Position numbers and translations under genes: made by a program | NCBI GenBank assembly: GCA_965261545.1 | Contig: CBDHDF010000010.1 | Span: forward strand, 96,001 to 160,000 | Source of the DNA: Bdellovibrionales bacterium | GTDB taxonomy: Bacteria > Bdellovibrionota > Bdellovibrionia > Bdellovibrionales > UBA1609 | Length of the DNA: 64,000 nt | Direction of reading: 5' to 3' | The notes under the pieces: generated by a model | Told to the model about the DNA's origin: nothing | The model's database searches: none | The model's input: only the letters and a program-made list of their open reading frames with translations | Shown: positions 41,128 through 59,807 of the stretch, piece after piece | How the letters are laid out: every line of letters starts with the position of its first letter | How positions within the stretch are numbered: position 1 is the stretch's first letter

Positions 41128-42372
41128 ATGAGCACGGAAGCTCAAACACTTAAAACGATCAAAAAATGTTTCAAGAAAGTTATTCCTGAAAAGGACTCTC
41201 GGGCAACCATTCCACCTCTTGAGTTTATTGTGGCTCTTGTCTTGTCATTCCAGGGAGACTCTAAGACATATTCAATAGAGGGAATTAGGAGGTTTATGAT
41301 AAGTCATTTAGGATTAAGAATTGAAAGACACAGCTTCTGGGAAAGACTCTCTAGAAAAAGATTAAAAGAGCTTCTGAGTAAACTGGTTGAAATGCTCATG
41401 ATAAAGCTATCTCATGGAGCTTTTCATGGGAGCAAAGCCATATTATTACAACTGGGAGTCTCAGACGTTCTTCTTGTTGACTCAAGCACAATAAGCCTTT
41501 GGGATGGAGCATCTGAGAATTTTCCAGGGACAAGAACAAACGCAGGAATTAAATGGCACGCTTGTTTCAGTTTATTCAGTGGTATAATGACTTGGTTCGA
41601 ATTAACTCCGTCTTCCACTAACGATAGGAAGTGCTTTCCTGATATAAAGGAACTCGTTGGAAAATTAGTCATCTTTGATTTGGGATATTGGGACTATGGC
41701 TTATTGTCATCTATTCATGAAGCTAAAGGATTTTTCTTGTCTAGAGTAAAGTCAAATGCCTCTATTCTTATTGATGCTGTTGTTGAAGGTTTGCCAGATT
41801 ACTATGTTGGAAAAGAGTTCTCTGATATTAAACTCAAGAAAAAAAACGATGTTGTTGAATTTATAGGCAGTGTCTTGTCCAATGGTAAATGGGTAAGTTT
41901 GAGAATTGTAGGCTTCTGGAATTCCTCCGAAAAACGCTATCATTGGTATTGCACGAATTTAGATGTGGCAGCGGAGTCCATATATCCAATTTATCGTTTA
42001 CGTTGGCAATGTGAACTTATTTTCAAATCTTGTAAGAATTCTTTGAATGCAAATCAGATCACCTCAAACGATCAAAATATCATAGAGAGTCTTCTTCTTG
42101 CTTCATTAGCGGCTCACCTCACATCAAGTGTTGTTTTGAGGATAGGAAGAACTAAACTCAATAAGGAACAAAATGACTCCACATCGTTTCAAAGAGTTGC
42201 TAAGGTTACCGTCTTATTAGCCTCTGATTTTATCAAATATCTCCTAAGCTCATCTCAAAAGTATTTAAATATTTTGATAGAGAAGATCAAGATATTCTCC
42301 CATGAAATTTATGACACAAACTACCGACGGCGAAAAACATCAATGAATATGGCTAAAAAGGTCTTGCTATGA
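41128..42372 (+). CDS. IS4-family transposase
   Basis: LVDSSTI, IFDLGY, FLSRVK, YRLRWQCELIFK. Confidence 0.92.
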   Translation: MSTEAQTLKTIKKCFKKVIPEKDSRATIPPLEFIVALVLSFQGDSKTYSIEGIRRFMISHLGLRIERHSFWERLSRKRLKELLSKLVEMLMIKLSHGAFHGSKAILLQLGVSDVLLVDSSTISLWDGASENFPGTRTNAGIKWHACFSLFSGIMTWFELTPSSTNDRKCFPDIKELVGKLVIFDLGYWDYGLLSSIHEAKGFFLSRVKSNASILIDAVVEGLPDYYVGKEFSDIKLKKKNDVVEFIGSVLSNGKWVSLRIVGFWNSSEKRYHWYCTNLDVAAESIYPIYRLRWQCELIFKSCKNSLNANQITSNDQNIIESLLLASLAAHLTSSVVLRIGRTKLNKEQNDSTSFQRVAKVTVLLASDFIKYLLSSSQKYLNILIEKIKIFSHEIYDTNYRRRKTSMNMAKKVLL

Positions 42373-43491: not shown

Positions 43492-44166
43492 CTTCCATTT
43501 AATCAATGACGCATATCGCAGATCTGTGATGCGTTACGTTATTCTCGTGGTATTATAGAGAATACCAACCAAGGTGAGTAAGAGCGTCTGCCCTCGGCTT
43601 CTCAACCCAAATTTTTATTGAACCCACTGACCCATCTCACAACACGGCCTCCCTTCCATGGTGTTTCCCAAGCCCTTACTAAACCCAATCATCCACCTGA
43701 AACTGTGGCGGCACAAAGTTCTTTTCCTCAGCATCTAGGAATGGCAAGCTAATTGAATTGAGGCATTGTTGTGGCTGCCTCTCCGGGCCAAATGAGATTG
43801 TGGAAAAGCACCTTCATGGTGCGCCCTTTTACGTCACTTGTGTTGAAAAAATTGATAGTTTTTGCCCCCACCCCCTTTCATGCAACCTCATTCACTTTAG
43901 AGCCTCTCAGGTCGAATCTCAAGCAATCAAATAGCATAAATAGCGTTGTCCCAAAAATGGCCTTGTTTAAATAGGAGGTCGCCTTAAATGGACCATGGGT
44001 GGTCCATTGAAGATATTTAAATATTTCAGAAAAAAAGTGTGTCATTCCATAATGATAAATACTTTTCCTTTGCACATACTTCATATTTTGACCCAAATTT
44101 TGGTCAATGGAATGACAGTGAGATGGTGTGAGTGCCTTGAAACCCACTTAGGTTTGAATACAGATT

Positions 44167-44182
44167 TGGCATGATTTATGCT
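44167..44182 (+). promoter_or_regulatory. Sigma54 (-24/-12) promoter
   Basis: TGGCATGATTTATGCT = GG-N10-GC, upstream of a sigma54 activator operon; dyads at 44040-44117. Confidence 0.7.
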
Positions 44183-45508
44183 TATAAAAATCTATGAAAG
44201 CATTTTTTAATTTACATCATTTGAACTTACATCATAAAGGCTCATATATTTTTAGGTCTATATTAGAAACCACATCTTTTGATTTACTCCCCATCATAGC
44301 CTCTAAATATTACAGGAAAGAAAAGAACTAAGAAGAATTAAGAAGAATTAAGAAGAATTAAGAATAAGGTGTCACGCCCACCTATATATGAAAGTCTATA
44401 AAAGACATGTTCATAACATGAAAGACATGCTCATATAGTTCATATAGATATATAGGTCGTATAAAGGGCTGTAGGCAATAGATTCGATTCTACAATAGTG
44501 GGAGGTATCAATCAATGAACTATAAAATTCTTATCGCCGATGACCAAGAATCTGTTCTTGATAATTTTCGAGAAATGTTCAAGAACCATTTGGACATTGA
44601 GCCCACCCTGACCCAACAATCCTTGGATGCCTTAAAGCTTATCCAAGAAAACCCCTATGATTATGCCGTTGTTGTTCTGGACTATCATTTTGAAGGTCAA
44701 AAACTCAATGGAGCGCAGGTGGCTCAAGAGATTCTTAAGATCAACCCCAAGCTGATTGTTCTTATTTGCACAGGGGACATGGGTCGAGAAGCTCCTATTT
44801 CTTGTCTCAAGGCCGGAGTGAGTGACTTCATTCAAAAAGACGAACCCCTTGATAAGATTATTGCTAGAATTAGATCCAATTTTAGGAAGTTTGATGAACT
44901 CTCACGAGTGGTGACAAGCAAATCCACCCAATATCAGTCCCACCAAAAAGAATTTGAAGAGGCATCTCTGATTTCAAAATTGGGTATGGTCGGTTGCTCT
45001 GCATCTATGGCTTCAGTGGCACAAAAGGTCTTGACCTTGAGTAAAAATGGAGGGGATAAATCGACAATACTTATTCGTTGTTAGGCGCCAATTAAAATTG
45101 GCCATTTTTAGAAGCCGTCGCCAATGAAAAACGGCCAGTTGATGATGTACTGATTTAGTTATTCTTCGTTCAGAGTTTAGTCAAGTGTCTTTATTTTGCT
45201 CATCATTTAACTCGGACTATGCCACAAGATTCTGAGGAATGATTTTCTGCCCACCACTTTTGGCATGACCCCAAATGCATCCTTCAGCCCTATGGCAGAG
45301 GTAAATGGAGTATTTTTCAGGATTCCTTGGCGCAGCTAATGTCTAAAGCTCCGCGAGAGTGACGAGCAAATAGTACGGTAAAAGCCAGTTATCCATAAAT
45401 TTATCCATGGCGACACTGCGGCTGTGACCCCGATGTCTAGCAACGCAGTGCTGCTGTGGATAAATTTTGTGGATAACTGGCGAGTTCCTTCCCCAAAAGT
45501 GGGGATCT

Positions 45509-46291
45509 CTAATGAACTTCTTTGGTTGAACTTTCCTCTTTGCTCTGTTTAGACTTGGCTTTTGCCGATTCGGTTCTCCAACTTTCTTTTCCTTCAATGT
45601 TGAGGGTTTCACAGTTGTGAATAATTCGATCAACAGCAGCAGCGGTGGTAATAGGGTTAAGAAACACCTTATCCCATTCAGAGTAAGTTAAGTTTGTAGT
45701 GATCATGAGACTTTTCCTTTCATATCGCTGAGATATGAATTGAAAGAAAAGATCAGCACCCTCTGTGCAGGAAGCTGTATAGCCAAGTTCATCACAAGCA
45801 ATAAGATCAAAACGGTCTAATTTCTTAAAAAGAGCATTCAATGAGAGTTCTTTCTTGCTTTCACGCATTGTTTCAATAAGTTCATGAGTGGTGACCCATA
45901 AACATCGATAGCCTTGTTCACAGAGTGAACGAACTAGGGACATGGCCAAATGACTTTTCCCCATTCCAAAGCTTCCGTAAAACACAACATTACAGGCTTT
46001 TCTGACCCACTCTCCCTCTGCCATCCAATTAATTTGCTGAGCTGTCACTCCCGTTCTTTTCTGGAAGTTATAAGTTTGGAGTGATTTAAGTTGAGGAAGC
46101 TTGGCCCCCTTAAGCAATCTTTTCACTCTCTGGGAATGCTTGTCAGCAAGCTCATTTTGAACGAGTATACCTAAATACTGTTCATACGTCTTTTTTGTTT
46201 TTTCGGCAACTCTAGCCGTTGCAACATATTCATCCGCCATCGCTGGAAGTCGGAGTTTTTTAAGAGAACCTATAAGTTCTTCGTGATTCAT
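45509..46291 (-). CDS. istB: IS21 helper ATPase
   Basis: GSFGMGKSH, CDELGY, RYERKS, TTN, DRIIH. Confidence 0.93.
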   Translation of the reverse strand: MNHEELIGSLKKLRLPAMADEYVATARVAEKTKKTYEQYLGILVQNELADKHSQRVKRLLKGAKLPQLKSLQTYNFQKRTGVTAQQINWMAEGEWVRKACNVVFYGSFGMGKSHLAMSLVRSLCEQGYRCLWVTTHELIETMRESKKELSLNALFKKLDRFDLIACDELGYTASCTEGADLFFQFISQRYERKSLMITTNLTYSEWDKVFLNPITTAAAVDRIIHNCETLNIEGKESWRTESAKAKSKQSKEESSTKEVH

Positions 46292-47757
46292 TAAGAACCT
46301 CCTATGTTTGGAACAAGACTGTCATATTGAGACAATCTAGGTTGAAGTGGTTTTTGTTGGTCATTCAAATTAATTTTGGTGGGATTGCCTAAGAGCAAAT
46401 CTTTTATGGATTTAAAGTCGAAAATCTCACGACTTTCTAATTGAAGCTCCATGGCTGTAGATAAGTCCTGCCAACTCACATGCTGAATCAAGTTGATAAC
46501 TCTTAAATATTCATGCTCGGCACGGCTTGAATCTTGTTGCTTGAGGTATTGATAAAAATTTTCAAACACATTTGTTGGAAAAAGAATGGATCGGTGAGCC
46601 CATCTTACCATGGCTTGCGGCTTACGAACTAAAGAGGGAAGGATATGTTCAAGAAGAAGACTATGCTCCCCATCAGGTTTTCTTTGATGGCGAGCGACAA
46701 TTTCTTGCTTCCCTCCTGCACGATAGATCGTGACATGATAGGGACCCTGTACGGTTTTACAGGGAGATTGGATCACCTCATCAGGTATGGAATATGTGGT
46801 TTTACCTATTCTCAAAGTCCCATAACCATTACTTTGACAAATATTCACCTTACAGAGAATATCTTCATCTCGTGGAGGCAAAGGCTTAAGAACTTTGGCC
46901 TCCTCCTCAAAGCGAGATTTGGTGGAGTCACTCTGATGCTGATCCATATAAGACTCTAAAAACTGATTCAAATGATCCCAGTCTTTAAAAACAATTCCTT
47001 TGTTTCTAACAATATTTTTTATCCGAGAACTGAAGGTTCGAATATCACGCTCCACATCTCCCTTGTCAGAGCCCTTCCCTGCGCGGCAGGGAAGAACCTT
47101 AAATCCATAGTATTGGATGGCTCGATCAAAAGATTGGGTGTAAATTCGCTGATTTCCTTTAAGAACTTTCTTCACACAGGGAGATAAATTATCAATACGG
47201 ATGTTCGCACTCATCCCACCTATCTTTTCAAAAAAAGCATGCACCCCATCGATGAAACACTCATAGACAAGAAAGGGGTAGGCACGAACCCAACAGGTGC
47301 CACTACAAGGCAATGTTCCAAAATGGAGATGAACGATCTGAACACCATCGGCAAATGGTAAAGCAACCTTCTCCTTAAAATCAAACTGAGCCTGTTCTCC
47401 AGGATCATATCTTTGGCTGAAAAAACGCTCCTTGGGGCGAGAACCAAGAATCTCACAAACTCTTCTCTGAACCGTTCTCTCACTCCCACGATAACCCTCC
47501 TCAACTAATAGCTCATATATTTCACGGGCGGTGTTACTTGGGTTCAACTTCAAAAAGTACTTCACCCGATCCATATATCCATTAAGGGGATCTGGGCGAG
47601 TTCTTTTGGACCTCGCCTTGTACTTCGGTGGGGTGTTGGACTCACAGTACTTGCGCACCGTCTTACGATTGATCCCTAATTCACGAGATATTTCTGTCTT
47701 ATTTTTACCACTGTGACTCAGGTCACGAATGCGGCCGAAAGTGTATTGACTAATCAT
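46291..47757 (-). CDS. istA: IS21 transposase
   Basis: HTH ISRELGINRKTVRKY, PGEQAQFDF, DNL, KGDVE; probable ATG at 47757. Confidence 0.92.
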   Translation of the reverse strand: MISQYTFGRIRDLSHSGKNKTEISRELGINRKTVRKYCESNTPPKYKARSKRTRPDPLNGYMDRVKYFLKLNPSNTAREIYELLVEEGYRGSERTVQRRVCEILGSRPKERFFSQRYDPGEQAQFDFKEKVALPFADGVQIVHLHFGTLPCSGTCWVRAYPFLVYECFIDGVHAFFEKIGGMSANIRIDNLSPCVKKVLKGNQRIYTQSFDRAIQYYGFKVLPCRAGKGSDKGDVERDIRTFSSRIKNIVRNKGIVFKDWDHLNQFLESYMDQHQSDSTKSRFEEEAKVLKPLPPRDEDILCKVNICQSNGYGTLRIGKTTYSIPDEVIQSPCKTVQGPYHVTIYRAGGKQEIVARHQRKPDGEHSLLLEHILPSLVRKPQAMVRWAHRSILFPTNVFENFYQYLKQQDSSRAEHEYLRVINLIQHVSWQDLSTAMELQLESREIFDFKSIKDLLLGNPTKINLNDQQKPLQPRLSQYDSLVPNIGGS

Positions 47758-49192
47758 AAGATCCTCCTCATTGCTAACCTTTTGAGTTGCAAAAGGGAGG
47801 GACTCTGTGAGCTTAGTATCTATATCAGAAGAAGAGACTTCATTGTCTAGTATTTGAACACTCCCTGAAGATTGGTCACTTTTCATTGGCGACAACCTCC
47901 ATATTGAAAGTGGGACATTTTAATTGGCGACGGCTTTAAGGGAAGCCTGTCTTCAAAAAGAAATTCCATGAAAATTGAGGCAAATGTTGGAATCTTGTGG
48001 AATTTAAATACTTTAGAAAATGGGCACAGCCTAAACAGGCTTTTCTTGACTATATATTTAACCTCATTGAAATCCAGAAACAGTCTACAAATGAGAAATA
48101 TGGAACCTGAATAGGCTGTCATGGAAGGACTCTCCAACACGGAGCCCCTTTCCAGGTCGACAAGAACCCAAAAGGAGTTCTTATCAGCTCGGAGCCTTTT
48201 TATGAGTAATATCAATTGATTATATGCGTCTCGGTTGACAATGCCAAAAATCACCATAGGTCCTCCTCTGAAAAGTGGCCACTTTTCATTGGCGACGGTG
48301 GGGCATTTTAATTGTCAGCTAACATTCGTGGTGAGTCGGGAACAGGAAAAGAGCTTGTTGCAAGAGCCATTCATGAAAACTCATCTCGAAAGGCAAAGCT
48401 TCGCATTGATATCAATTGTGCTTCTATTCCAGAGGGTCTTTTAGAATCAGAGTTTTTTGGCCATGAAAAGGGAGCCTTTACGGGAGCGGATAAAAAGCGA
48501 CTTGGTAAGTTTCAGGTGGCCACAGGTGGTACAATTTTTCTTGATGAAATTGGTGAAATGCCCAAAGAACTTCAGGCTAAACTTCTTCGAGTCTTACAAG
48601 AAAAAACCATTGAACCCATTGGCTCCAACTCTCCCATACCTGTGGACGTTCGAGTGATTGCCGCAACACATGTGAACCTTGAGGAAAAGGTTGAATCTGG
48701 GGAATTTAGGGAAGACCTCTTTTATCGACTGAACCAAATACCCCTCTTTATTCCCTCCCTAAGAGAGCGTCCCGAAGACGTTGCCCCCTTGGTCACCCAC
48801 TTTATGGACAAGCACTCTGGGAGAGAAAAGAAAAAACTCATGTATAAGACCTTGCAATACTTAAAATCTTACCAGTGGAATGGCAATATTCGTGAACTCG
48901 AAAACACCATCAAGCAATTGGTTGTTTTAACCCCCAGTGATGAGATTCGTCCAGAGCATCTTGATGCTAAGATATTTGAAGCCAACAGCAGGGCGGCCAC
49001 AATGTCGTATCCAGAGTTTAAAAATATTGTGAATAAAAAAGTCGAAGAGGAAGAAAAAGAATTTCTTGTCTCAAGAATAAGAGCTTATCCCTCCTTAAGA
49101 GCTGCGGCAAAGGCTCTGTCTATACCAAAAACCTCACTCCAGAGAAAACTCTCTGAATGGGGATATTCTTCAAAGGGCGAGGGGGTGTTGGT

Positions 49193-50275
49193 ATGAGTTT
49201 CTTAAAAACAATGGAAGACTATCTACTCAAAAAGGTTATAAAGCATATTGGAGGCCAAAAAAGCATGGCCATTCAACTGGATATTACAAATGCTTGCAAC
49301 CTTAAATGTTCCCACTGTTACCATTCCCATCATAAAAATACGGGAGCTTTAAACCTTGAAGGCTGGCTTGAGATTCTTGACCAGTACGACAAGATGCTTC
49401 AAACTCTCAAGCTACAGCCCTATATTGTGATTTGCGGCGGGGAGCCCACATTAAGTCCCTATCTTTTTTCTATTCTAAAAAGAGCCAATGAGCTTTGGGA
49501 AAGTCCCACCATTACAATTCTTACCAATGGTACAAAGCTTACAGACAAACTACTGTCTTCCCTCAGTGAGTACAATATGCGGTTTCAGGTCTCTCTAGAC
49601 GGTCCTGATGCTAAGAGGCATGATGCTCTTCGTGGTAAAGGGAATTTCCAAAAGGCACTGGAGGGAGCCAAACGGGCCAAGCAGTACGGCATTGAGACAA
49701 ATATTCTAAGTATTTTATCAAAGAAGACCTCCCATTGGATTCCAGAGTTCTTTCAAATGGTCAAAGAAAACGACCTTAACTCTATGGGCTTTACACGATT
49801 TATTCCACAGGGTTTTGGCGCAGAGCTTGTCGAAACTGGGGGAGATGATTCCTTGTATGGTTTTGAACTCAGGGATGCCATGAAGTCCATCATTTATTTT
49901 TCAAAGAAATCTGGGGTGCGAACTTCAACAGACCACCCCTTATATCACCTTATTGACCCCAAGCTTGGTCATAATGGCCGCTTTGGATTCCAAGGACTTG
50001 TAGTGGACTACAAAGGTAACTTGAAGGTTTCTAGCAGAGCCAATTACATACTTGGAAATGTACTCGGCGAAGGTCTGCAAAATTTGTTCTTACACCATCC
50101 TTTAATGAAGGATTTGAGAAACTCCCAAAAGATCAATGGATGTGGTGATTGTATGTATTATGCACGATGTGGTGGAGATAGAAATATAAGCTATGCCACA
50201 ACGGGAAGTTTTTTAGAAAAAGACAAAGGATGTTGGATTCATCCAAGAACTATCAAGAAAGGAGTTGTCGCATGA
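49193..50275 (+). CDS. Radical SAM protein with a SPASM-like C-terminal domain (putative peptide maturase)
   Basis: [21 protein letters not shown]...HDALRG, C-terminal [13 protein letters not shown]...C; ATGA overlap with the regulator stop. Confidence 0.9.
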
Positions 50276-50643
50276 AAAAAATAACAAGGAAAATAAAAAG
50301 AAGAAGCTTATTATTTCTTCTGTCTTTAGTGCCCATACAGTCTCTTGCTTTTGCTGTGGATTTTTCTTCAAAATTAGGAAAGAACAGAGAATCTCTAGGC
50401 AATCATAATTATGAAGAAGAGATGGTAAATCGTTTGTTGGAAGGAAGTATGCCTGAAAAATATTATGATCTTATGGATAAGCATCATGTGAAGCATCCCG
50501 AAGATTTATATCTTAATGAATTTCAGTCACAGAGAATCCTCTTAAAAAGAGAATTTATCAATGATCTCTATGCTTCCAATGAAACAGAAGATGGAATTGA
50601 TAAAGAAACAAGTGGAGCTATGAGTGACTTTCTGTGGCCATAA
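50272..50643 (+). CDS. Small exported protein, candidate RiPP/signal precursor (123 aa)
   Basis: AAAGGAG RBS, ATGA overlap with the rSAM stop, Sec-type signal peptide (AFA), C-terminus ...DKETSGAMSDFLWP. Confidence 0.7.
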   Translation: MKKITRKIKRRSLLFLLSLVPIQSLAFAVDFSSKLGKNRESLGNHNYEEEMVNRLLEGSMPEKYYDLMDKHHVKHPEDLYLNEFQSQRILLKREFINDLYASNETEDGIDKETSGAMSDFLWP

Positions 50644-50676
50644 TTCATGGACGAAACAGTTTGAGAGTCTTGTAAA

Positions 50677-52197
50677 ATGAATAAATTTATAATTTTTTTT
50701 ATTATATCAATGAGTATCTTCAGCTACCATTGGATATGGAAAGGAGAGGGTAACGAGATGATCTTAAAAGTAGGATATCCAGATGGGTGGAATGATCTCA
50801 CGCCCACACTTCAACATACAGGACATGCGGACTCTATTTTGCATAACGCTTTTGAGCCATTGGTCATCCTCGGGAAAAATGAAATTATTCAACCTATGGC
50901 CGCAAAATCATGGTCTATCGATCCTCAAAAAAGAGTATTTACATTTGAAATTGATACCAAAAGAAAGTTTTCTAATGGAACTCCACTTTCTGCACAACAT
51001 TTCAAAGATTCATGGGAGTATAGCCTCAAAGTGACACCTAAGTCTTCTAATAACAGCTTGCTTGATGTCCTTTACAAGATGGATGGTTTTGAAAATCATG
51101 AGAAAACAGGAAATATCTCTGGAATTGAGGTTCTTAACGAGAGTACTTTAAGAGTTACTTTTAAGAAATCTTTTCGTATGGCCCTTAGTCATTTGTCTGG
51201 ATCAAGAATGTCTTCTTTCCTCCGAGAGGGCGAAAATTTTCTAGGAACCGGTCCTTATGTTATCAATGAAATAAGTGAGAAGGAAATCATGTTGATAAAA
51301 AATGAATACTTTTTGGACTCTGTTCCTTTTGACAAAGTAAGCATTAAGATTGTCCCTCCTGATGTGGCTCAAGAATCTCTAGATCGTGGCGATATTGATT
51401 TTTATGCCTTCGCCAAGGGCTCTCTTGATCTTTGCCGTGAGGAGTTTTTAGAGTGCAGTGCGGGATCTGAAAATCGCCATGCTGTGATTATCGTCAATGG
51501 TCAAGAGGGACGTATTTTTAGCAATCCACAGCATCGGAAAGCCCTTCAATACCTTTTCTTAGATGGCTTTACATTGGAAGATATGCCCAAGGAAAGTCGT
51601 TCTGGAATCCAGTTAGACCCTCAAATATTCTTACCATTCCAATCGGGGCGCATAACAGAGTCAAAAGCCAAGGAGATTATTCAGCAAGGCCAAACATATG
51701 TTGAGAACTTTATCAAGGCCACCCAAGAACAACCACTTTATTTTGCCCTCCATAAGAGAGGGAGATGGCTCCAAGAATACCTCGGAAAGAAGGGAGTTCA
51801 ATTTTCTAAGAAATCAGAAAGTGACCATGAGGAACAATTTAGAAAAATGTACCATAAAACCTACGAACCAGATATCATCCCTAGGGCCTTAAGCGTTTTT
51901 AATGGTGACCCCGATGGAATATATCATGCTCTTGGTGAAAAAGGGGCTATCAGTTCTCCCATGATTCATCGTAAAACTATTTCATCACTCCTTGAAGAGG
52001 GCCGCAAAATACTTGATTTTGATAAATTGGCTCCACACTACGAAAAGGTGGCTGAAGCAGCCTTGCAAGAAGTTCCTTTTATCCATATAGGATTCTTGCA
52101 CGACATTATGATTTTAAAAAAAGACCGAGTGAAGCTTAATGGAAAATACGTCAATCGTGAAGATGGACGCTTTACAAACTACCAGCCAGTGGAATAA
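50677..52197 (+). CDS. Orphan family-5 (oligopeptide-type) solute-binding protein
   Basis: N-terminal anchor, FEPLV, AKSWSI, FSNGTPLSA, GTGPY; no ABC permease or ATPase genes adjacent. Confidence 0.88.
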   Translation: MNKFIIFFIISMSIFSYHWIWKGEGNEMILKVGYPDGWNDLTPTLQHTGHADSILHNAFEPLVILGKNEIIQPMAAKSWSIDPQKRVFTFEIDTKRKFSNGTPLSAQHFKDSWEYSLKVTPKSSNNSLLDVLYKMDGFENHEKTGNISGIEVLNESTLRVTFKKSFRMALSHLSGSRMSSFLREGENFLGTGPYVINEISEKEIMLIKNEYFLDSVPFDKVSIKIVPPDVAQESLDRGDIDFYAFAKGSLDLCREEFLECSAGSENRHAVIIVNGQEGRIFSNPQHRKALQYLFLDGFTLEDMPKESRSGIQLDPQIFLPFQSGRITESKAKEIIQQGQTYVENFIKATQEQPLYFALHKRGRWLQEYLGKKGVQFSKKSESDHEEQFRKMYHKTYEPDIIPRALSVFNGDPDGIYHALGEKGAISSPMIHRKTISSLLEEGRKILDFDKLAPHYEKVAEAALQEVPFIHIGFLHDIMILKKDRVKLNGKYVNREDGRFTNYQPVE

Positions 52198-52199
52198 TC

Positions 52200-53894
52200 A
52201 TGAAGAAAATGATCTTAAAGAAAATAACCTTGAACAAGTGGCTTCTTAGAAACACAAAAATGCCATTGCTCATCCTAGGGGTGATGGTCGCCCTTGCTCA
52301 AGTATGTTTTGTGGCTTATACCCACAATAGATCAAAAGAAACACAAACAAAATCCATCAAAAAGCTTGTCGCCACGGTCATCCAAATTGGAATACATCAA
52401 AAAAACCGCCCTCTCTTAGAATCATCCTTTCAACTGGCCATGGAAGAACTTGGCGTAAGGTCCATGATTTTTTGCGAGGGCACAAGAAAAATATTCCACC
52501 AACCCTTTGGGTTTGGAAATTGCCCCCATAATCTCAAGGAAGGATTTTTTGAATCTGTGATTGAAGTCAATCCCTCTGGATTTAAAGATCATCATTTCTA
52601 TTTTTATGTGGATCGTTTTCACATTGGCCCCTCTCTCATCGCACTGAATGTCATTATCTTAGTATTTTTGTCTATTGTTTTTATTATCATCTATAGGATA
52701 CAAAAACATCTTTCAAAAGATATATTTTTGCCTCTAGAAAGTCACTTGTCTGGAGGAGATGAGATTTATATTGAAGAGCTTGATGCCATTAGAAATAAAT
52801 TTGAAGAATATCGAAAATCCAAAGAGAAGCAAGCTGTGGCGGGGGCCATTATTGAGTACAATATGAGCATTAATCACAACATCAAGTCAATGAAACAGAC
52901 TCTTGATGTGATTATGTCAGGTGAGTTTTCTTCGGAAAGGCAAAAGCAGAGATTTAACCAAGTTTCCAATGATTTTAAGAGGCTTATGGCCAAAATTGCC
53001 GACCAGATACCAGATAGAAATAAAGTAAGCCTTATCACCTCAGACAAAACATTCTTTGAGTACCTTGAAAAGGAGAATGAGAAGACAACAAAGGTATGTG
53101 CCGTTGATGCCTTTGAAATTGCTTGCGAACATAAAAAAATCGAAAAGAAATCTTCTAAAAATGATCTTCGTATTGAAATATCTTACGATGATGAGGTAAA
53201 AAAACTGTATATTGAAGCCGTCGATCCTGAGTTGAGGGGTATTTTTTCAAACTTGATGAACAACTCTATTGAATCTGGAGCCACTCATATTGAGATCAAT
53301 CTACGAAAAGAAGAGACCGACCTTGTAGCAACAATTTTTGATAACGGGAAAGGAATCCCTCAAGACATCAAGGAAAATATATTTCAGCGAGGTTTTAGTT
53401 GGGAAAAAGAAGGTGGAACAGGCTATGGACTCTACCACGCTCAAAGATTTATAAGGTCATGGCATGGAGAGTTTCATCTTCTAGAGAGCAAGAAGGGACG
53501 AACAGAGTTTGAAATCAAACTTCCCATATGGAGCCCCTCCTCCATGGATATTGATTCAGCAGGCCATATCGTGATTTTAGATGACGAAGATTCCGTTCAT
53601 GACCAATGGTTGGAAAAGATGAACTCGATCAATCCAGAAGCCAAGGTTCTTTCTTTTAAAAAGCCCCATGAGTTTCAAGATTGGTTTAACGAAAATGAAA
53701 TCTTCTCCCATTATATCTTCTTTTTTGACAGTGACCTGGGGGAGCATGAAGAAAATGGAGAGCATTTAATAAATGAAATGGGTCTTAACCACATCTCCTA
53801 CCTTGTCACCAACAACTATAATAATCCAAATCTGACAAAATGGTGTGATGAAAGGGCCATTCAAGTCATTCCCAAGGGCTACTTGCTGGGTTAA
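52200..53894 (+). CDS. Membrane sensor histidine kinase with a C-terminal receiver-like domain
   Basis: Two TMs; H-box NHNIKS, NLMNNS, DNGKGI, FQRGFS, GTGYGL; C-terminal VILDD...FFDSDL. Confidence 0.9.
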   Translation: MKKMILKKITLNKWLLRNTKMPLLILGVMVALAQVCFVAYTHNRSKETQTKSIKKLVATVIQIGIHQKNRPLLESSFQLAMEELGVRSMIFCEGTRKIFHQPFGFGNCPHNLKEGFFESVIEVNPSGFKDHHFYFYVDRFHIGPSLIALNVIILVFLSIVFIIIYRIQKHLSKDIFLPLESHLSGGDEIYIEELDAIRNKFEEYRKSKEKQAVAGAIIEYNMSINHNIKSMKQTLDVIMSGEFSSERQKQRFNQVSNDFKRLMAKIADQIPDRNKVSLITSDKTFFEYLEKENEKTTKVCAVDAFEIACEHKKIEKKSSKNDLRIEISYDDEVKKLYIEAVDPELRGIFSNLMNNSIESGATHIEINLRKEETDLVATIFDNGKGIPQDIKENIFQRGFSWEKEGGTGYGLYHAQRFIRSWHGEFHLLESKKGRTEFEIKLPIWSPSSMDIDSAGHIVILDDEDSVHDQWLEKMNSINPEAKVLSFKKPHEFQDWFNENEIFSHYIFFFDSDLGEHEENGEHLINEMGLNHISYLVTNNYNNPNLTKWCDERAIQVIPKGYLLG

Positions 53895-54096: not shown

Positions 54097-57069
54097 GTGA
54101 TGAAAATAAAGAACCTAAATCCGAGAAACAAGGGATATTTTGCAGTATGCCAGATCATGTCCCCATGGACTGTATTTTCCTGCTTGTTATTTCTTTTGTT
54201 TTCTACGGCATTGGTTGTACAGGCACAAGGTAGAGTGGCCAGTGACAAGGGCATGAATAAAGACGTGGACATGGGAGCGAACAGGGGAATTGGCAAGGGT
54301 GGCAACAAGAATTCTCTGGCTTTGAAAGCCGAAGCATTAGAGCGACAAAGCAAGCCACCTTCAGACAACAAGTCGCCCTTAGACACTGCAAAAAAGTCCG
54401 TGGTTTTACCTAAGCCTTCCCTTCCCCCCAACAAGGTTCTTCAAAATAAAAAAAATAAAGATATGGAGAAGATTAAAATCACTGGCTCACGCATTCAGCG
54501 CATAAACATGGAGGGTTCTTCACCCACCATTGTTTTAAGTCGAGAGGATATGGAGAAAACAGGCTATAATTCCATTGCTGATATTCTGCGTGATATGACG
54601 GTGAGTTCCTTTGGGTCGCTACGTGAGTCTCCTGGCAGCACTTCATCGGGTGTAGCTCTCATCAATCTAAGAGGTCTTGGGGCTGATAGAACTCTTGTTT
54701 TGATGGATGGGAAGAGGGTGCAAAGAGACCCTCTTAAAAATGCCGTGGACCTAAACCTCATTTCTTTGGCTGCGGTGGAGAGAATCGAAATTTTAAAAGA
54801 CAGTGCCTCAGCCATTTATGGGTCTGAAGCCCTTGGAGGTGTTGTTAATATTATCACCCGGAAAAACTTTAGTGGCCATGAAGCCTCAGTGAAACAACTT
54901 ATCAGTGAAGGCTCTGGCGGAAATCAGACCGAGGTGGGCCTAACCTCTGGAGCTTCTTCTGGGCGATGGAGTGCCACGGGAATCTTGCACCATAGAAGCA
55001 ATGAAGCCATTTATGATATTGACCGCAAGTACTCTCGGTTAAGATTGAGTCCCTTAAGCTCTCCTGCAACATTTCGAGTTTTAAAATCAGACAAAAAAAC
55101 CTCCTACACAGAAGCGGACGGAAAAACACTTGCGTTTCGCTCTCGCCCACAGGCGTCCCCAAGTTGCCCCACGGATAGAGTTGCCAGAGGATATGGGGGA
55201 ACTGTTTGCCAAGCCAATTATGCAAGCCATCTCACAAACCGCCCTAGCTTGGAGCAAACCAGTGCTATGCTCAACACAAACTTTCAAGTTAGAGATGACG
55301 TGAACACCTTCTTTCGCCTCCATGGTGCCTTCCGAAATGTTCAATGGGCCTATTCCCCCACTCCCATTGGTTCTTTTTCAGGACATGGCATTTCGGGGAG
55401 ACAAGCCAAAATATACGCCATGGAAGACCCCCAGCTAAAGAAAATTTTTGAAGGTTTGAGAGATGATGATTTTGTAGAGGTGAACAGCCGCCTCATGGAG
55501 CTAGGAGACCGTCAATCGGATATTACCACCCACCAATATGGTACATTGGCAGGGGTGACATTGGAAAAGGGAGATACTTGGGAGATCGAAATTTCTGCTG
55601 GCTACAACCAGAGTTTTACCAAGAATGTGGGAGCCAATGGATATGCTCGCTCTCATGAAGTTCAACAACGACTTGATACAACAGGCTTCAATCCATTTGC
55701 CTCTCCAGGAACAAGGGGAGACCTTTCAGAGTTAAATTATCAGACTTGGACCACGTCCATGACAAGCTTGATTTTGGCTGAAGTTTCGGCCACGGGAGAT
55801 ATTTTTCAAATGCCATCGGGTCCCGTGGGGTTGGCCATTGGAACTCAAGCCCACAGGGAAGCTTTTCGTATAGACTCCGATGAAGCCACTAAAAATGATG
55901 AAATCATAGGAGCTGCTGGAGGAAAACTTGACGGGTCTCGTAATGTTGTGTCTGGCTATATGGAGCTATCACTTCCCTTGCTGCCAAGTGTGGAGTGGAG
56001 CCTCTCAAGCCGCTATGATGCTTATTCTGATTTTGGTCAAGCCTTTAGTCCTAAGACAAATATTCGTTGGCAGGTATCTCCCAAAGTCATGGTTCGCTCA
56101 TCCATAGGAAGAGGTTTTAAAGCACCCAACATGGATGATCTCTATAAAGAAGGTTCCCATGGCTTTCAAACTTTTATAGATCATGTGCTTTGCCAAAAAA
56201 GTGGTGGCAGTAGTGGAGGTGGTGGAAGCAATAGAAGTGGGGGAGGTGGCAGCAGTAGCGGAAGTGCTTGCCGCCCTCACCAGTGGAAGGTCATAAGCCA
56301 TGGCAATACCAACCTTAAGGAGGAAAGGTCTTTATCTGCAAGCCTTGGGGCCTTTGTGGAGCTTACCCATGGCATCGAGTTTGGCATTGATGGTTGGTAC
56401 TTGAAGTTAGAAAACGAGGTGGGGCTTCAGTTTGACGATATGACAATGGCTGAACATCGTTTTGGGTCCCAATATCTTCAAGGTTTTGGCATTCATGTGG
56501 AGCGTGACCCATCCACAGGCCAAATCAAAAAAGTCATAGCTCCCCACCAAAATCTTTCAAAAAGAGAGTTGAGTGGGGTCGATCTTGTTACAGAAGTTTT
56601 TAAAAGCACGAAGTGGGGTGATATTGCTCTTGCAGTCCAACACTCCCATTTGCTTTACAACAAAACTGTTGGCTTTTCTGGCTTAGAGAAACAAGATACA
56701 TTGGGTCACTATGGCTTGCCTCCATGGAGAAATGTTGTTTCCCTGACATATTCTCCAAGCCACTCAACGGGAATTCGTATGAGAGGGTCAAGCGACCATC
56801 AAACGGGAACATTGGTAGCAAGAACCGTGGCCCCTCATCAAAAGCGTAGCTCCAAGGCTGGCAATCACAAGCAATATACAGAGCTAGACCTTCAATACAC
56901 ATATAACGGCTTATGGGGAGGCTCTGGCAGCATCTCCATGGGAATTCGCAACATATTGGCAACCACGCCCCCCGTGGATGACAGCAACCCAAGCCTCCCC
57001 CAAATGCACTCGTCTTTGTACGACGGAAATGGCCGCATGGGATGGCTGCAATATAAGTATTTGTTTTAG
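54097..57069 (+). CDS. TonB-dependent outer-membrane receptor
   Basis: EKIKITGSRI, INLRGLG, RTLVLMDGKR, ERIEILKDSASAIYGS, GGVVNIITR; C-terminal F. Confidence 0.93.
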   Translation: MMKIKNLNPRNKGYFAVCQIMSPWTVFSCLLFLLFSTALVVQAQGRVASDKGMNKDVDMGANRGIGKGGNKNSLALKAEALERQSKPPSDNKSPLDTAKKSVVLPKPSLPPNKVLQNKKNKDMEKIKITGSRIQRINMEGSSPTIVLSREDMEKTGYNSIADILRDMTVSSFGSLRESPGSTSSGVALINLRGLGADRTLVLMDGKRVQRDPLKNAVDLNLISLAAVERIEILKDSASAIYGSEALGGVVNIITRKNFSGHEASVKQLISEGSGGNQTEVGLTSGASSGRWSATGILHHRSNEAIYDIDRKYSRLRLSPLSSPATFRVLKSDKKTSYTEADGKTLAFRSRPQASPSCPTDRVARGYGGTVCQANYASHLTNRPSLEQTSAMLNTNFQVRDDVNTFFRLHGAFRNVQWAYSPTPIGSFSGHGISGRQAKIYAMEDPQLKKIFEGLRDDDFVEVNSRLMELGDRQSDITTHQYGTLAGVTLEKGDTWEIEISAGYNQSFTKNVGANGYARSHEVQQRLDTTGFNPFASPGTRGDLSELNYQTWTTSMTSLILAEVSATGDIFQMPSGPVGLAIGTQAHREAFRIDSDEATKNDEIIGAAGGKLDGSRNVVSGYMELSLPLLPSVEWSLSSRYDAYSDFGQAFSPKTNIRWQVSPKVMVRSSIGRGFKAPNMDDLYKEGSHGFQTFIDHVLCQKSGGSSGGGGSNRSGGGGSSSGSACRPHQWKVISHGNTNLKEERSLSASLGAFVELTHGIEFGIDGWYLKLENEVGLQFDDMTMAEHRFGSQYLQGFGIHVERDPSTGQIKKVIAPHQNLSKRELSGVDLVTEVFKSTKWGDIALAVQHSHLLYNKTVGFSGLEKQDTLGHYGLPPWRNVVSLTYSPSHSTGIRMRGSSDHQTGTLVARTVAPHQKRSSKAGNHKQYTELDLQYTYNGLWGGSGSISMGIRNILATTPPVDDSNPSLPQMHSSLYDGNGRMGWLQYKYLF

Positions 57070-57299: not shown

Positions 57300-59807
57300 A
57301 TGGCCAAAAAAAGAATACTTAATTTTCAATTAAAATTATTTTACAGCTATTCTCATGAAGATAAACAGCATAAAAATGATATGGAGAAAGCACTTGCTAT
57401 TCTTAAAAGAGATAAGCTACTCAATGAGTGGTCTGACAAAGAAATTTTACCGGGTCAATTAATTTCTAAGGAAATAAAAAAGAATATGAGAGAAGCAGAT
57501 ATTATTGTATTTCTCTTTAGTCAAAATTTTATCGCTTCTCAAGAATGTATGAACGAGTGGGAAGAGGCAAAAAAAATTTCTCTAGATAAAAAAAAATTTT
57601 TCCGAGTTCCAGTTATTCTATGTGATTGTCCATGGAAAGATATATTAAAAGATGATAACATCAAATCATTACCGAATGATGGGAATCCAGTTGCCAATTT
57701 TTCCAACAAAGAAACTGCATGGAATCAGATTTATGAAGGCATCAAGAATATCATTAACGAACTAAGAAGTGATTTTACTCCTAATGAAAATTTTTTAAAA
57801 GAAATAGAGAAAACTGATTTTTTATCTGAGAGTCAAATTAAATTAAAAAATATTTTTATATTCTTGCCATTGTTGAATTATAGACAAGATCAAGAATATA
57901 GTCAATTAAGAGAAGAAAGAACTACAAGCCAAGGCCGTTTAAGAGAAGAAAGAATTACAAGCCAAGACCAGCTGTTTAATAAAAAGTATACCATCATCCA
58001 TGGCGAAGAGATGAGTGGGAAAACTGCTCTTAGTAGGTATTTATTTCTCTGTTTAGTTGAACAGTTAGTTCCTGTTCTGCATATAAATATGGATGATATA
58101 CCCAAGCAAGTTTTGCAAGTGGATTTTCTAAAAAAAGTATATCAAGATCAATTTAATGGAGACTATGACCTATGGGTGAAAAAAGATAAGAAAGTTCTCA
58201 TATTAGATGATTTACATTGCAAATCAAATATGATTGATTTCGTTATTCAATCAAAAGATATTTTTGATAAAATAATTATAATGGTATCATCAGATATTTT
58301 TAATTCGTTTTTTAAAGATGAATCTCGACTGGCTGATTTCCATCAATTAGAAATCCAACCAATGGGACATCAACAACAAGAAAATTTAATTAAAAAAAGA
58401 TTAAAGTTATCCGATATGAAAGCAGAAGATGGACTTATAGATCAAATAGAAGAACGTGTAAATTCCATAATTATATTTAATAAATTTGTTCCAAGATATC
58501 CATTCTTTGTATTATCTATCCTCCAAACCTATGAAGCGTTTATGCCTAATAACATGTCTATAACTTCTTATGGACATTGCTATAACGCTTTAATTATTTC
58601 GTTCCTTATTAAGTCTGGGGTCCAAGAAAGCGATAAGGATATTAATACGTGTTTTAATTTTCTTGAAAACTTAGCATTTAAAACATACAAAAATAATAAC
58701 AAAATACATTTTGATAATTTTATTCGTGAATATGATAACCAATTTATTATTGCAGATTCAATAATTAATAGGTTAAAAAGCAATGAATATGGAGTTCTTA
58801 ATGAAGAAGGTTCTTTCAAGAAAAAATATATTTATTATTTTTTTCTTGGAAGATTTCTTTCTAAAAATAAAGAATACGAAAAAATAATTGAAAATATGTG
58901 CGAAAAAAGTTATTTAACATCAAACTATTTGACTCTTCTTTTTATTATTCATCATACAGATGATGATAAAATAATAGATGATATTCTTCTTAGAACTATG
59001 TGTACAATAGATTCTGTCGAGCCAGCAACTCTGGATTGCAAAGAAACAAAGAGATTTGACAAAATTCTTAAAACATGTCAAAAAAACATACTTTCCAAAG
59101 GTAGTGTTTCAAGTGAAAGAAGAAGAGAGAGAGAGAATCGAGACATAAGTGACCGATCAGAAATTAAGAACGAAAAAATAGAAGATGACGATCCTTGTAA
59201 TTATATTTATAGGATTTTTAAAAACAATGAAATTATAGGGCAAGTTTTAAGAAACAAATATGGGAGTATGAAAAGAAAGCAAATTGAAGATATAATTGAG
59301 ATAATTGGAGATAGTGGTTTGCGTCTCATTAATATAATTCTCAAAGATAAAGAAGAGATAGACGAAGTTGCATTATGCATTAAAAAGAGGGGGACTGATA
59401 TTAGTGTTAACAAGATAAAGAAAGAACTCCAATTTTTTTCTTTCATATGGGCAATGTTAAATATTGAAAAAATTGTTAGATCTATAAATATTCCTGAGAT
59501 TAAAGAGGCTATAGATCATGTTGTATCCAAAAAATCAACTTCAGCATATGATCTTATTGGATACTTCAACCAACTAGATAGGTCAGAGTCATTTGGGGAG
59601 AGAGAAAAGAAGGCTTTAAGTAGTTTACTCAAAAAACATGATAATAATAATTTTATTAAAAAAGTAATTTCTCTAAGAACACAACACTATATGAATACAC
59701 ATAGAACCAAAGAGCCTATACAACAAGGAGTTTGTTCTTTACTGAATATCAAGTATACCCAAAGGGCCCTCCATCAAATTGAAGAAAAGGTTAGGGAGTG
59801 TCGTTAG
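57300..59807 (+). CDS. TIR-domain P-loop (STAND-like) NTPase, putative anti-phage protein
   Basis: FYSYSHED...W.DKEI.PG...SQECMNE (TIR); GEEMSGKT and LILDD; AT-rich. Confidence 0.82.
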   Translation: MAKKRILNFQLKLFYSYSHEDKQHKNDMEKALAILKRDKLLNEWSDKEILPGQLISKEIKKNMREADIIVFLFSQNFIASQECMNEWEEAKKISLDKKKFFRVPVILCDCPWKDILKDDNIKSLPNDGNPVANFSNKETAWNQIYEGIKNIINELRSDFTPNENFLKEIEKTDFLSESQIKLKNIFIFLPLLNYRQDQEYSQLREERTTSQGRLREERITSQDQLFNKKYTIIHGEEMSGKTALSRYLFLCLVEQLVPVLHINMDDIPKQVLQVDFLKKVYQDQFNGDYDLWVKKDKKVLILDDLHCKSNMIDFVIQSKDIFDKIIIMVSSDIFNSFFKDESRLADFHQLEIQPMGHQQQENLIKKRLKLSDMKAEDGLIDQIEERVNSIIIFNKFVPRYPFFVLSILQTYEAFMPNNMSITSYGHCYNALIISFLIKSGVQESDKDINTCFNFLENLAFKTYKNNNKIHFDNFIREYDNQFIIADSIINRLKSNEYGVLNEEGSFKKKYIYYFFLGRFLSKNKEYEKIIENMCEKSYLTSNYLTLLFIIHHTDDDKIIDDILLRTMCTIDSVEPATLDCKETKRFDKILKTCQKNILSKGSVSSERRRERENRDISDRSEIKNEKIEDDDPCNYIYRIFKNNEIIGQVLRNKYGSMKRKQIEDIIEIIGDSGLRLINIILKDKEEIDEVALCIKKRGTDISVNKIKKELQFFSFIWAMLNIEKIVRSINIPEIKEAIDHVVSKKSTSAYDLIGYFNQLDRSESFGEREKKALSSLLKKHDNNNFIKKVISLRTQHYMNTHRTKEPIQQGVCSLLNIKYTQRALHQIEEKVRECR

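Follow-up and report, generated by a model that had tools for sequence, protein, structure and literature searches.

A conserved radical SAM enzyme, small exported protein, binding protein and kinase cassette in Bdellovibrionota as a candidate peptide-sensing circuit

To our knowledge, peptide autoinducers with dedicated modifying enzymes, textbook matter in Gram-positive bacteria, are nearly unknown in diderms, with no case described from the predatory Bdellovibrionota; how cells of this phylum sense each other or their prey is, as far as we know, an open question. Several described systems come close to such a design. In ComQXPA of Bacillus subtilis and agrBDCA of staphylococci, compared here by description, a single autoinduced locus encodes peptide precursor, modifying enzyme, kinase and regulator, with a polymorphic peptide and sensor block beside a conserved regulator; in such pherotype loci, signal and receptor are matched and the output is shared. 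In Vibrio, the transporter-less periplasmic binding protein LuxP and a hybrid kinase, LuxQ, signal through LuxU to the sigma-54 activator LuxO, and in Vibrio cholerae the binding protein CBP, of the oligopeptide/family-5 type, controls the hybrid kinase ChiS from the periplasm. Phr, PapR/NprX and the enterococcal pheromones are Sec-exported pro-peptides whose C-terminal signal is bound by OppA-family proteins. Among radical S-adenosylmethionine (SAM) enzymes, anSME of the SPASM group modifies Ser or Cys of a protein with a Sec signal before export, and the enzymes of streptide and other streptococcal radical SAM peptides modify a short peptide encoded next to them, in an operon under peptide signalling. 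Here we describe a cassette of a Bdellovibrionales bacterium in which a sigma-54 regulator gene is followed by genes for a radical SAM enzyme (rSAM), a small exported protein, a family-5 substrate-binding protein (SBP) and a membrane histidine kinase.

The stretch analysed, hereafter the window, comprises the 64,000 nucleotides of C10:96001-160000 (contig CBDHDF010000010.1) in a 4.3 Mb genome of 11 contigs, whose relatives are metagenome-assembled genomes (MAGs) named Bdellovibrionales or Bdellovibrionia. We give an even chance to the reading that the cassette is an autoregulated, autoinduced circuit sensing a modified secreted peptide. In this circuit, the cytoplasmic rSAM would modify the small pre-protein ahead of its Sec export, the Gly/Ser/Pro-rich C-terminal tail being the probable place of modification, and the SBP would bind in the periplasm either the exported product or a peptide released from its C-terminus. 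The loaded SBP would dock onto the periplasmic domain of the kinase, which would set the phosphorylation state of the sigma-54 regulator; by binding palindromes, the regulator would act on its own operon in a positive feedback. The signal would either leave the cell, as in true quorum sensing, or stay in the periplasm of its producer as an autocrine signal. Open reading frame (ORF) calling, Pfam and NCBIfam delineate one tightly packed plus-strand operon at 43823-53894, with the following features.

43823..53894, plus strand: cassette unit common to the paralogous copies on contigs C11 and C2 (blastn and MAFFT against loci L013 and L014; homology from 43823 to 53892-53894)
43989..44006, no strand assigned: palindrome TGGACCATGGGTGGTCCA, candidate enhancer-binding site 1 (upstream activating sequence, UAS)
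44089..44106, no strand assigned: palindrome TGACCCAAATTTTGGTCA, candidate UAS site 2, between the arms of an 11-nt inverted repeat (44040-44050 and 44107-44117)
44167..44182, plus strand: sigma-54 type -24/-12 promoter TGGCATGATTTATGCT (consensus match at 10/12 positions)
44323..44362, no strand assigned: 10-bp tandem repeat (AAGAATTAAG-like) in a long 5' leader
44515..45078, plus strand: 5' part of the response regulator gene, receiver, 188 codons (Pfam Response_reg 2.5e-15; 98% identity to the intact paralogue)
45079..48324, minus strand: IS21-family insertion sequence (IS) element, istA 46291-47895 and istB 45509-46291 (Pfam IstB_IS21 3.1e-57)
48330..49196, plus strand: 3' part of the response regulator gene, sigma-54 AAA+ domain, lid and HTH (Pfam Sigma54_activat 3.7e-65, AAA_lid_14, HTH_50)
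49193..50275, plus strand: radical SAM enzyme, 360 aa (Pfam Radical_SAM PF04055 1.9e-24; 87 bits against a cut-off of 29.5)
50272..50643, plus strand: small exported protein, 123 aa, signal peptide with AFA site, without Pfam or NCBIfam family
50677..52197, plus strand: family-5 (OppA/DppA/NikA-type) SBP (SBP_bac_5 PF00496 4.3e-30; 105 bits against a cut-off of 32.4)
52200..53894, plus strand: membrane histidine kinase (Pfam HATPase_c 5.7e-18)

The regulator and rSAM genes overlap in ATGA at 49193-49196, as do the rSAM gene and the small ORF at 50272-50275, suggesting translational coupling, and the gap between the SBP and kinase genes is 2 nt. A preliminary description of this DNA had given the same overlaps and the same 2-bp spacing, which were confirmed, and every component on its parts list was recovered. 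Its start of the cassette at 44040 has to be moved, since the unit shared by the paralogues begins at 43823 and takes in two palindromes 5' of the promoter.

The distribution of the cassette was followed through relatives of the rSAM. High-scoring matches lie at three places in the window's genome, at two in genome G004 and at one each in G030 and G023, and 16/401 genomes of an even sample of the phylum have an rSAM match at E <= 1e-30. The resulting genome set consists of 20 loci from 16 Bdellovibrionota genomes, leaving out two partial matches in G337. A small ORF with a signal peptide lies directly 3' of the rSAM gene in all 20 loci, followed by the SBP gene in 17/17 assessable loci and by the kinase gene in 17/17 assessable loci. 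Among these loci, L018 is partly masked, L017 and L035 are cut by a transposase gene or a contig end, and L027 and L032 run off their contigs; the SBP gene of L017 is truncated by the transposase gene, and those of L028 and L031 lie in two frames. L017 (G030) and L035 (G397) are near-identical cassettes in two MAGs: in L017 the transposase gene stands between the small ORF and the SBP gene and truncates both, and the contig of L035 ends at the equivalent point.

For metagenomes, the best 80 of 517 confirmed stretches were taken, with an rSAM identity to the query of 39% or more in 23 loci and of 22-34% in the other 57. The small ORF is present in 20/21 assessable metagenome loci (two found by eye, one weak; L055 is without it), the SBP gene in 15/16 (L053 has a different ORF in its place) and the kinase gene in 11/11, the kinase of L045 being recognised by its likeness to that of L026 and not by Pfam. 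In the 57 outgroup rSAM loci, there is no match to an SBP, kinase or small ORF among the neighbours. The rSAM of this family is hence accompanied by an adjacent, co-conserved candidate precursor gene, and the four-gene core of rSAM, small ORF, SBP and kinase is strictly syntenic. The sigma-54 regulator gene is adjacent in 11 of the 20 genome loci, so the five-gene synteny put forward in the preliminary description stands for the four-gene core and not for a five-gene unit.

The window's genome contains three copies of the cassette: that of the window, an intact copy of a second type on C11 (L013), and a copy near-identical to the latter on C2 (L014), in which the rSAM gene is split by a 506-aa transposase gene (L014:7396-8916). 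Between the window and C11 copies, protein identity is 98% for the regulator and 92% for the rSAM, then 45% for the small protein, 57% for the SBP and 64% for the kinase, within which the sensor is 55% and the DHp domain 78% identical. At the nucleotide level, identity is 93-100% from 43888 to ~49690 and 85-89% to 50290, and drops to 46-75% where the small ORF begins, staying there up to the kinase stop. The corresponding values between the window and L015, which belongs to another genus, are 43% for the small protein, 55% for the SBP and 52% for the kinase. The variable block is as diverged between two copies in one genome as between genera, forming a pherotype-like mosaic. Two other genomes hold two copies each, diverged over their whole length.

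The small protein was extended with a profile of 14 locus-derived sequences, which retrieved 111 cluster representatives at E <= 0.001 among 1.84 billion, mostly of 100-125 aa and some of 49-70 aa. Shared by all are a basic N-terminus, a hydrophobic stretch whose Pro is nearly invariant (LPIxSISFAA) and an AxA-type site, which make up a Sec-type signal peptide conserved more strictly than export by itself would require. In an AlphaFold2 model of the window protein (83-row alignment; mean predicted local distance difference test score, pLDDT, 81.6), residues ~45-108 form a helical domain with block pLDDT mostly of 95-98, followed by a C-terminal tail at 109-123 with pLDDT of ~55-60. Compared with mid-protein, the last 15 residues hold more Gly (11% vs 4%), Ser (16% vs 6%) and Pro (6% vs 2%), and also more Trp. 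'PS' occurs within the last 12 residues in 51/109 small proteins, often as PSx[W/H/Y/F]; other tail classes are SS[IV]xP[DE], GxxS[IV]F and TRSxW, and 93% have a Ser within the last 8 residues. Only 5/109 have a Cys after residue 30. The rSAM subclades match the small-protein types, namely 'YY' (including the window), 'AESKL...PSxW' and the short 'AQSALSVAQIR', a match to be expected from co-inheritance and from co-adaptation alike. A Foldseek search of the model against PDB gave no match at E <= 0.001, and the protein atlas gave no usable match. A predicted complex of the SBP (28-506) with the mature small protein (29-123) scored 0.02, without controls, and counts neither way.

The helical domain bears on a different explanation, in which the cassette is an environmental sensor: the SBP would sense an outside ligand, such as peptides of prey or medium, a metal complex or heme, and the small protein would be a periplasmic modulator or adaptor, in the manner in which CpxP modulates CpxA as a periplasmic accessory, with the rSAM maturing it or another exported part. 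We consider this rather unlikely. The confidently modelled helical domain of the long forms agrees with it, but the short forms of 49-71 aa, which lack this domain and have no room for a folded one, keep the same neighbours. That small protein, SBP and sensor diverge together under one regulator type is also what would be expected for a matched self-signal rather than for a common outside ligand.

In a profile search of PDB, the solved relatives of the SBP include OppA, DppE, MppA, NikA, HbpA and the pheromone receptor PrgZ (E 1.2e-13), so that the nearest structures bind peptides, nickel complexes or heme, in keeping with an outside ligand. The SBP reaches no NCBIfam equivalog cut-off (Opp4A 63 vs 650 bits, NikA 61 vs 393). 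Its N-terminus is hydrophobic with no clear cleavage site, and the protein may be membrane-tethered. The cassette and the surroundings of the related loci examined contain no ABC permease or ATPase gene, and a partner transporter elsewhere in the genome was not searched for; the SBP without transporter genes of the preliminary description was thus found again in the window, and the gene directly next to it is that of the kinase in every assessable genome locus. Beyond the kinase gene, at 54097-57069, the window encodes a 990-aa TonB-dependent receptor (Plug and barrel, with a Gly/Ser-rich insert), which would suit an environmental sensor but stands outside the shared unit: at the equivalent place, the C11 paralogue has only the last 37 codons of such a receptor (L013:11754-11855), so that the receptor was either deleted there or gained in the window.

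Two long membrane helices of the kinase enclose a periplasmic alpha/beta domain of ~100 aa in which two Cys are invariant; the kinase also has an invariant His in xHxIxS and conserved N and G boxes. It had been called a hybrid kinase. AlphaFold2 models its C-terminal domain (456-563) as a (beta-alpha)5 fold (block pLDDT 76-91) with DD, D, T and K at receiver positions, DD and D being invariant, which would agree with that name; Pfam finds no receiver in the kinase, and a PDB profile search with the C-terminal domain returned nothing below E 0.09. Several to many kinases of the family have no such receiver-like domain, and its presence showed no link with an adjacent regulator gene in the loci compared. 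Against LuxN, the kinase scores 43 bits (cut-off 1550).

For the rSAM, an alignment of 116 homologues reveals conservation at 99-100% of CX3CX2C, with C35, C39 and C42 invariant as in the radical SAM superfamily, and of C317-X2-C320-X5-C326-X20-C347; no other C-terminal Cys is conserved, and an invariant Arg occupies the position of the fourth SPASM Cys. With only CX2CX5CX20C and Arg in the fourth-Cys place, the enzyme has the Cys set of the second auxiliary cluster (AuxII) and not the full SPASM set; the name rSAM/SPASM-like holds in its first half, by Pfam, and not as full SPASM. According to a published account (PMC10452713), SPASM maturases have seven to eight conserved Cys for AuxI and AuxII, anSME has two auxiliary clusters, and the AhbDs of non-methanogenic archaea carry CX3CX2C and CX2CX5CX20-38C without AuxI.

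The best NCBIfam matches of the rSAM are TIGR04053 (127 bits, cut-off 395), the ACGX-system family (120, 400), AhbD (102, 500) and NirJ (98, 515). Against the AhbD/NirJ families TIGR04545, TIGR04051, TIGR04054 and TIGR04055, the window enzyme reaches 93-102 bits with cut-offs of 500-650, and four further members reach 65-114 bits; the outgroup enzymes reach 250-320 bits to AhbD, NirJ2 or TIGR04053, likewise under cut-off. MftC (89 vs 265 bits) and anSME TIGR03942 (65 vs 349) are not reached either, and PqqE is not among the best 25 matches of the window enzyme. The nearest solved proteins, at E 1e-10 to 5e-7, are SkfB, anSME (4k37, E 1.8e-10), BlsE and PqqE (6c8v, E 5e-7). In a quick maximum-likelihood tree of 82 rows, which left out rows with a best match of fewer than 280 residues, 29 members form one long branch (SH-aLRT 99) with all outgroup rows outside. 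A protein search returned 286 rSAM relatives at E <= 1e-20, whose sources have generic names, a few of them being labelled Bdellovibrionales or Elusimicrobia MAGs; some homologues are auto-named 'AdoMet-dependent heme synthase'. On this evidence, the rSAM is placed by sequence within the SPASM/Twitch neighbourhood and outside its named families. A side observation concerns P0149, a 476-aa metagenome protein and single representative, in which rSAM and small signal-peptide protein lie in one frame; this could be a natural fusion, which would favour the circuit reading, or an artefact of a lost stop, of sequencing or of gene calling at the ATGA overlap.

These matches raise the question of a non-peptide product, according to which the rSAM would act on a tetrapyrrole-like or other small molecule sensed by the NikA/HbpA-like SBP, and the small ORF would not encode its substrate. 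AhbD, NirJ, NirJ1 and NirJ2 are among the top NCBIfam matches, heme synthase is among the automatic names, the SBP family includes heme and nickel binders, and the AuxII-only CX2CX5CX20C is the layout given for the AhbDs of non-methanogenic archaea in PMC10452713. We nevertheless regard it as very improbable: the scores of the rSAM (65-127 bits) are far from the cut-offs (395-650), the members sit on a separate long branch, no heme or cofactor genes are adjacent (no siroheme or heme d1 pathway gene was found in the window or among the neighbours scanned in 14 loci), and the strictly conserved small exported ORF with its ATGA coupling to the rSAM gene would be left unexplained. A grouping with PqqE, NirJ or Ahb enzymes had been named in the preliminary description as one outcome that would speak against its proposal. 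The separate clade and the unreached cut-offs do not show such a grouping; the inclusion of AhbD and NirJ among the weak best matches and the AuxII-only Cys layout keep part of that concern alive.

The regulatory part of the proposed circuit starts at TGGCATGATTTATGCT, in which the -24 GG and the -12 GC are correctly spaced and which is conserved in all three copies of the genome. Only 206 sites in 8.63 Mb (both genome strands) score as well, corresponding to 0.015 expected per 630-nt upstream region, so the sigma-54 promoter announced earlier is present, as a consensus match, against a low background. With candidate activator sites upstream of it, the operon has the makeup of a sigma-54 dependent one, by consensus. 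Elsewhere in the family, sites scoring at least 10 lie 5' of the regulator gene in the window lineage, L015, L034/L035, L025 and L037, and 5' of the rSAM gene in L018; L016, L030 and L056 have sites scoring 9, and the scan found none in L026, L045, L023, L028, L031, L033 and L027.

The 4.3-Mb genome has 13 palindromes of the type upstream of the promoter; the three cassette copies account for 9, of which 6 are 5' of the promoter. Across lineages there are two or three 5' of the promoter, with a half-site that varies: the orthologues L015, L034 and L035 have three GACC(C)-N6-8-(G)GGTC sites at the equivalent place, and the half-sites are GTCCCA-N4-TGGGAC in L016, TGGCC..GGCCA in L025 and TGTCC-N8-GGACA in L018. 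Enhancer-like palindromes and a sigma-54 promoter ahead of the regulator gene in several lineages are new support for the loop. A further palindrome inside the rSAM gene (window 49954) was rejected as a coding coincidence: it occurs in all three copies and not in orthologues, and overlaps the conserved IDPKLGH codons. The tandem repeat at 44323-44362 differs by two units (20 nt) between paralogues, as compared with L013 and contigs from sequencing runs. It lies in a leader of 330 nt from promoter to regulator start; in orthologues the promoter lies no more than 48-92 nt ahead of the start codon, so the long leader is specific to this genome.

The regulator comprises a receiver, a sigma-54 AAA+ domain and an HTH by Pfam, as in NtrC-type response regulators, and all three domains named earlier were found in a gene split by IS21. 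Joined without the IS, the two halves read in frame for 476 aa, the same as the intact C11 paralogue. The regulator reaches no NCBIfam equivalog cut-off (LuxO 233 vs 800 bits). In that branch of the family to which the window belongs, these elements give good support to a predicted autoregulated sigma-54 operon; across the family, a sigma-54 operon is not universal.

When the genome was searched for extra regulon members, exact palindrome and promoter patterns gave the three cassettes only, exact patterns being liable to miss weaker sites. The modified product itself may be the output of the circuit. This leads to another explanation, that of an autoinduced effector: the modified small protein would mainly be an antimicrobial, predation or kin-recognition factor that induces itself through the SBP-kinase pair, just as nisin induces its own synthesis through NisRK. 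With exact-pattern promoters only at cassettes, the operon products are the sole visible output, and several genomes keep two or three diverged copies, both in favour of an effector; yet the search would pass over weaker sites, and no immunity, export or processing genes are conserved beside the core. We hold it to be improbable.

The window copy itself is broken. Its IS21 element of 3,246 bp ends in inverted repeats and is flanked by a 5-bp target duplication, TTCGT (45074-45078 and 48325-48329), and dozens of full-length copies more than 99.6% identical to it lie on at least nine contigs, many of them interrupted themselves, which points to a recent IS burst. The split regulator breaks the loop in this copy, and the IS probably also separates the genes behind it from their promoter. 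Mobile elements thus inactivate 2/3 cassette copies of the genome, leaving one intact, on C11. A presumed IS-free allele of the window copy was dismissed: the contigs with the joint 45072->48324 show the base differences typical of the C11/C2 paralogues and a leader shortened by 20 nt, and so represent those copies. Four sequencing runs contain the cassette sequence, all from one sample and study, with no RNA run among those listed.

Further genes were noted around the cassettes. In the window, a DDE_Tnp_1 transposase gene lies nearby at 41128-42372. An AbiEii-type toxin gene (L033:7738-8589) lies directly 5' of a regulator-less cassette, and a conjugative coupling-protein-like gene lies 3' of the cassette in L016, which together hint that some cassettes are in mobile regions. 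Downstream in the window, an 835-aa protein with an N-terminal TIR domain (57300-59807; NF053861 'DS8 anti-phage protein', 320 bits against a cut-off of 790) is encoded within a low-GC stretch of 26-32% GC and is probably a defence gene on an island.

Taken together, the operon anatomy, export signals, synteny and mosaic make a peptide-sensing circuit the best reading of the cassette. Several points weigh against it. In the operon, the regulator gene is not adjacent in 9/20 genome loci and the window's own is disrupted by the IS; synteny is broken in L053 and L055; and no sigma-54 promoter was found on scanning the short-peptide subclade (L038-L043 and L048) or, more widely, in 14/16 metagenome members scanned. 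As regards the peptide, the cassette encodes no protease, exporter or outer-membrane route, in line with an environmental sensor too, and beside the core no gene for a protease, exporter, Hpt protein or ABC transporter is conserved (window by Pfam; neighbours scanned in 14 loci). The helical domain, confidently modelled at pLDDT >95, would fit a folded periplasmic partner equally well as a pro-peptide, and the near-absence of Cys excludes the common thioether chemistry, so that no modification site can be named. On the side of the enzyme, no RRE/PqqD-like leader-recognition domain matches by Pfam and only ~30 residues precede the cluster motif (some known SPASM maturases are also without an RRE); its best profile matches, far under cut-off, include the heme enzymes AhbD and NirJ. 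No target of the exact palindrome pattern was found other than the operon itself, and modification, export beyond the periplasm, SBP binding and kinase-to-regulator transfer are steps that we infer.

The signalling loop of the preliminary description is accordingly narrowed: the four-gene core, promoter, mosaic and signal peptide speak for it, and the universal five-gene unit is gone, with the window copy disrupted. A broader version, for which we see some but clearly less than even likelihood, is that of phylum-wide peptide-pheromone systems in Bdellovibrionota, in which a Sec-exported pro-peptide, modified by a dedicated AuxII-only rSAM, would be released and read by an OppA-like co-receptor on the kinase, with matched signal and receptor alleles (pherotypes) exchanged between strains and several channels per genome. 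The cassette is a compact circuit of four genes and a defined promoter, with two natural specificity types in one genome, and its rSAM clade has a chemistry that acts, if at all, on a Cys-free substrate. If the circuit reading is right, an orphan binding protein would act as co-receptor of a kinase in a further case beyond the sensing of sugar and of AI-2 (autoinducer 2). The broader version would amount to a radical-SAM peptide quorum-sensing class in diderms, with new enzyme chemistry on a Cys-free Gly/Ser/Pro-rich tail.

Full-text literature searches returned no description of this gene combination, and the cassette is a member of none of the families compared, in agreement with the earlier statement that it was not recognised as a named system. 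The single-locus arrangement, autoinduction and polymorphic block next to a conserved regulator in ComQXPA and agr are the nearest to the proposed circuit; there, however, the enzyme is an isoprenyl transferase or membrane protease and not a radical SAM enzyme, whereas the cassette has a precursor with a Sec signal peptide, an OppA-family SBP between signal and kinase, a sigma-54 activator as regulator and a diderm host. LuxP-LuxQ-LuxU-LuxO shares the transporter-less binding protein and, with the proposed circuit, the path from kinase to sigma-54 activator, but its ligand is AI-2, LuxP is of another binding-protein family, the cassette has no Hpt gene, and the LuxO and LuxN cut-offs are not reached. 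CBP-ChiS offers the same binding-protein type in control of a kinase, although CBP responds to an outside sugar, is encoded in a transporter operon and has no enzyme or small ORF partner.

Among peptide signals, Phr, PapR/NprX and the enterococcal pheromones resemble the proposed signal in export and in binding by OppA-family proteins, PrgZ being a relative of the SBP, but they are unmodified, imported, sensed inside by RRNPP regulators and Gram-positive. In the streptide type, a separate SHP/Rgg signal has the modified peptide as its output, and the operon has no SBP-kinase pair. As for the enzyme, anSME, among the closest solved relatives, acts on a sulfatase motif, (C/S)xPxR, which is absent here, the tails carrying PSx[W/H/Y/F] and related motifs. 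AhbD and NirJ, among the best profile matches, have the same Cys layout, as in the AhbDs of non-methanogenic archaea (PMC10452713), but the rSAM scores about a fifth of their cut-offs, falls in a separate clade and has no heme-pathway context. By these comparisons, the enzyme clade and the receptor wiring appear undescribed, and the overall design would be that of a peptide autoinduction circuit.

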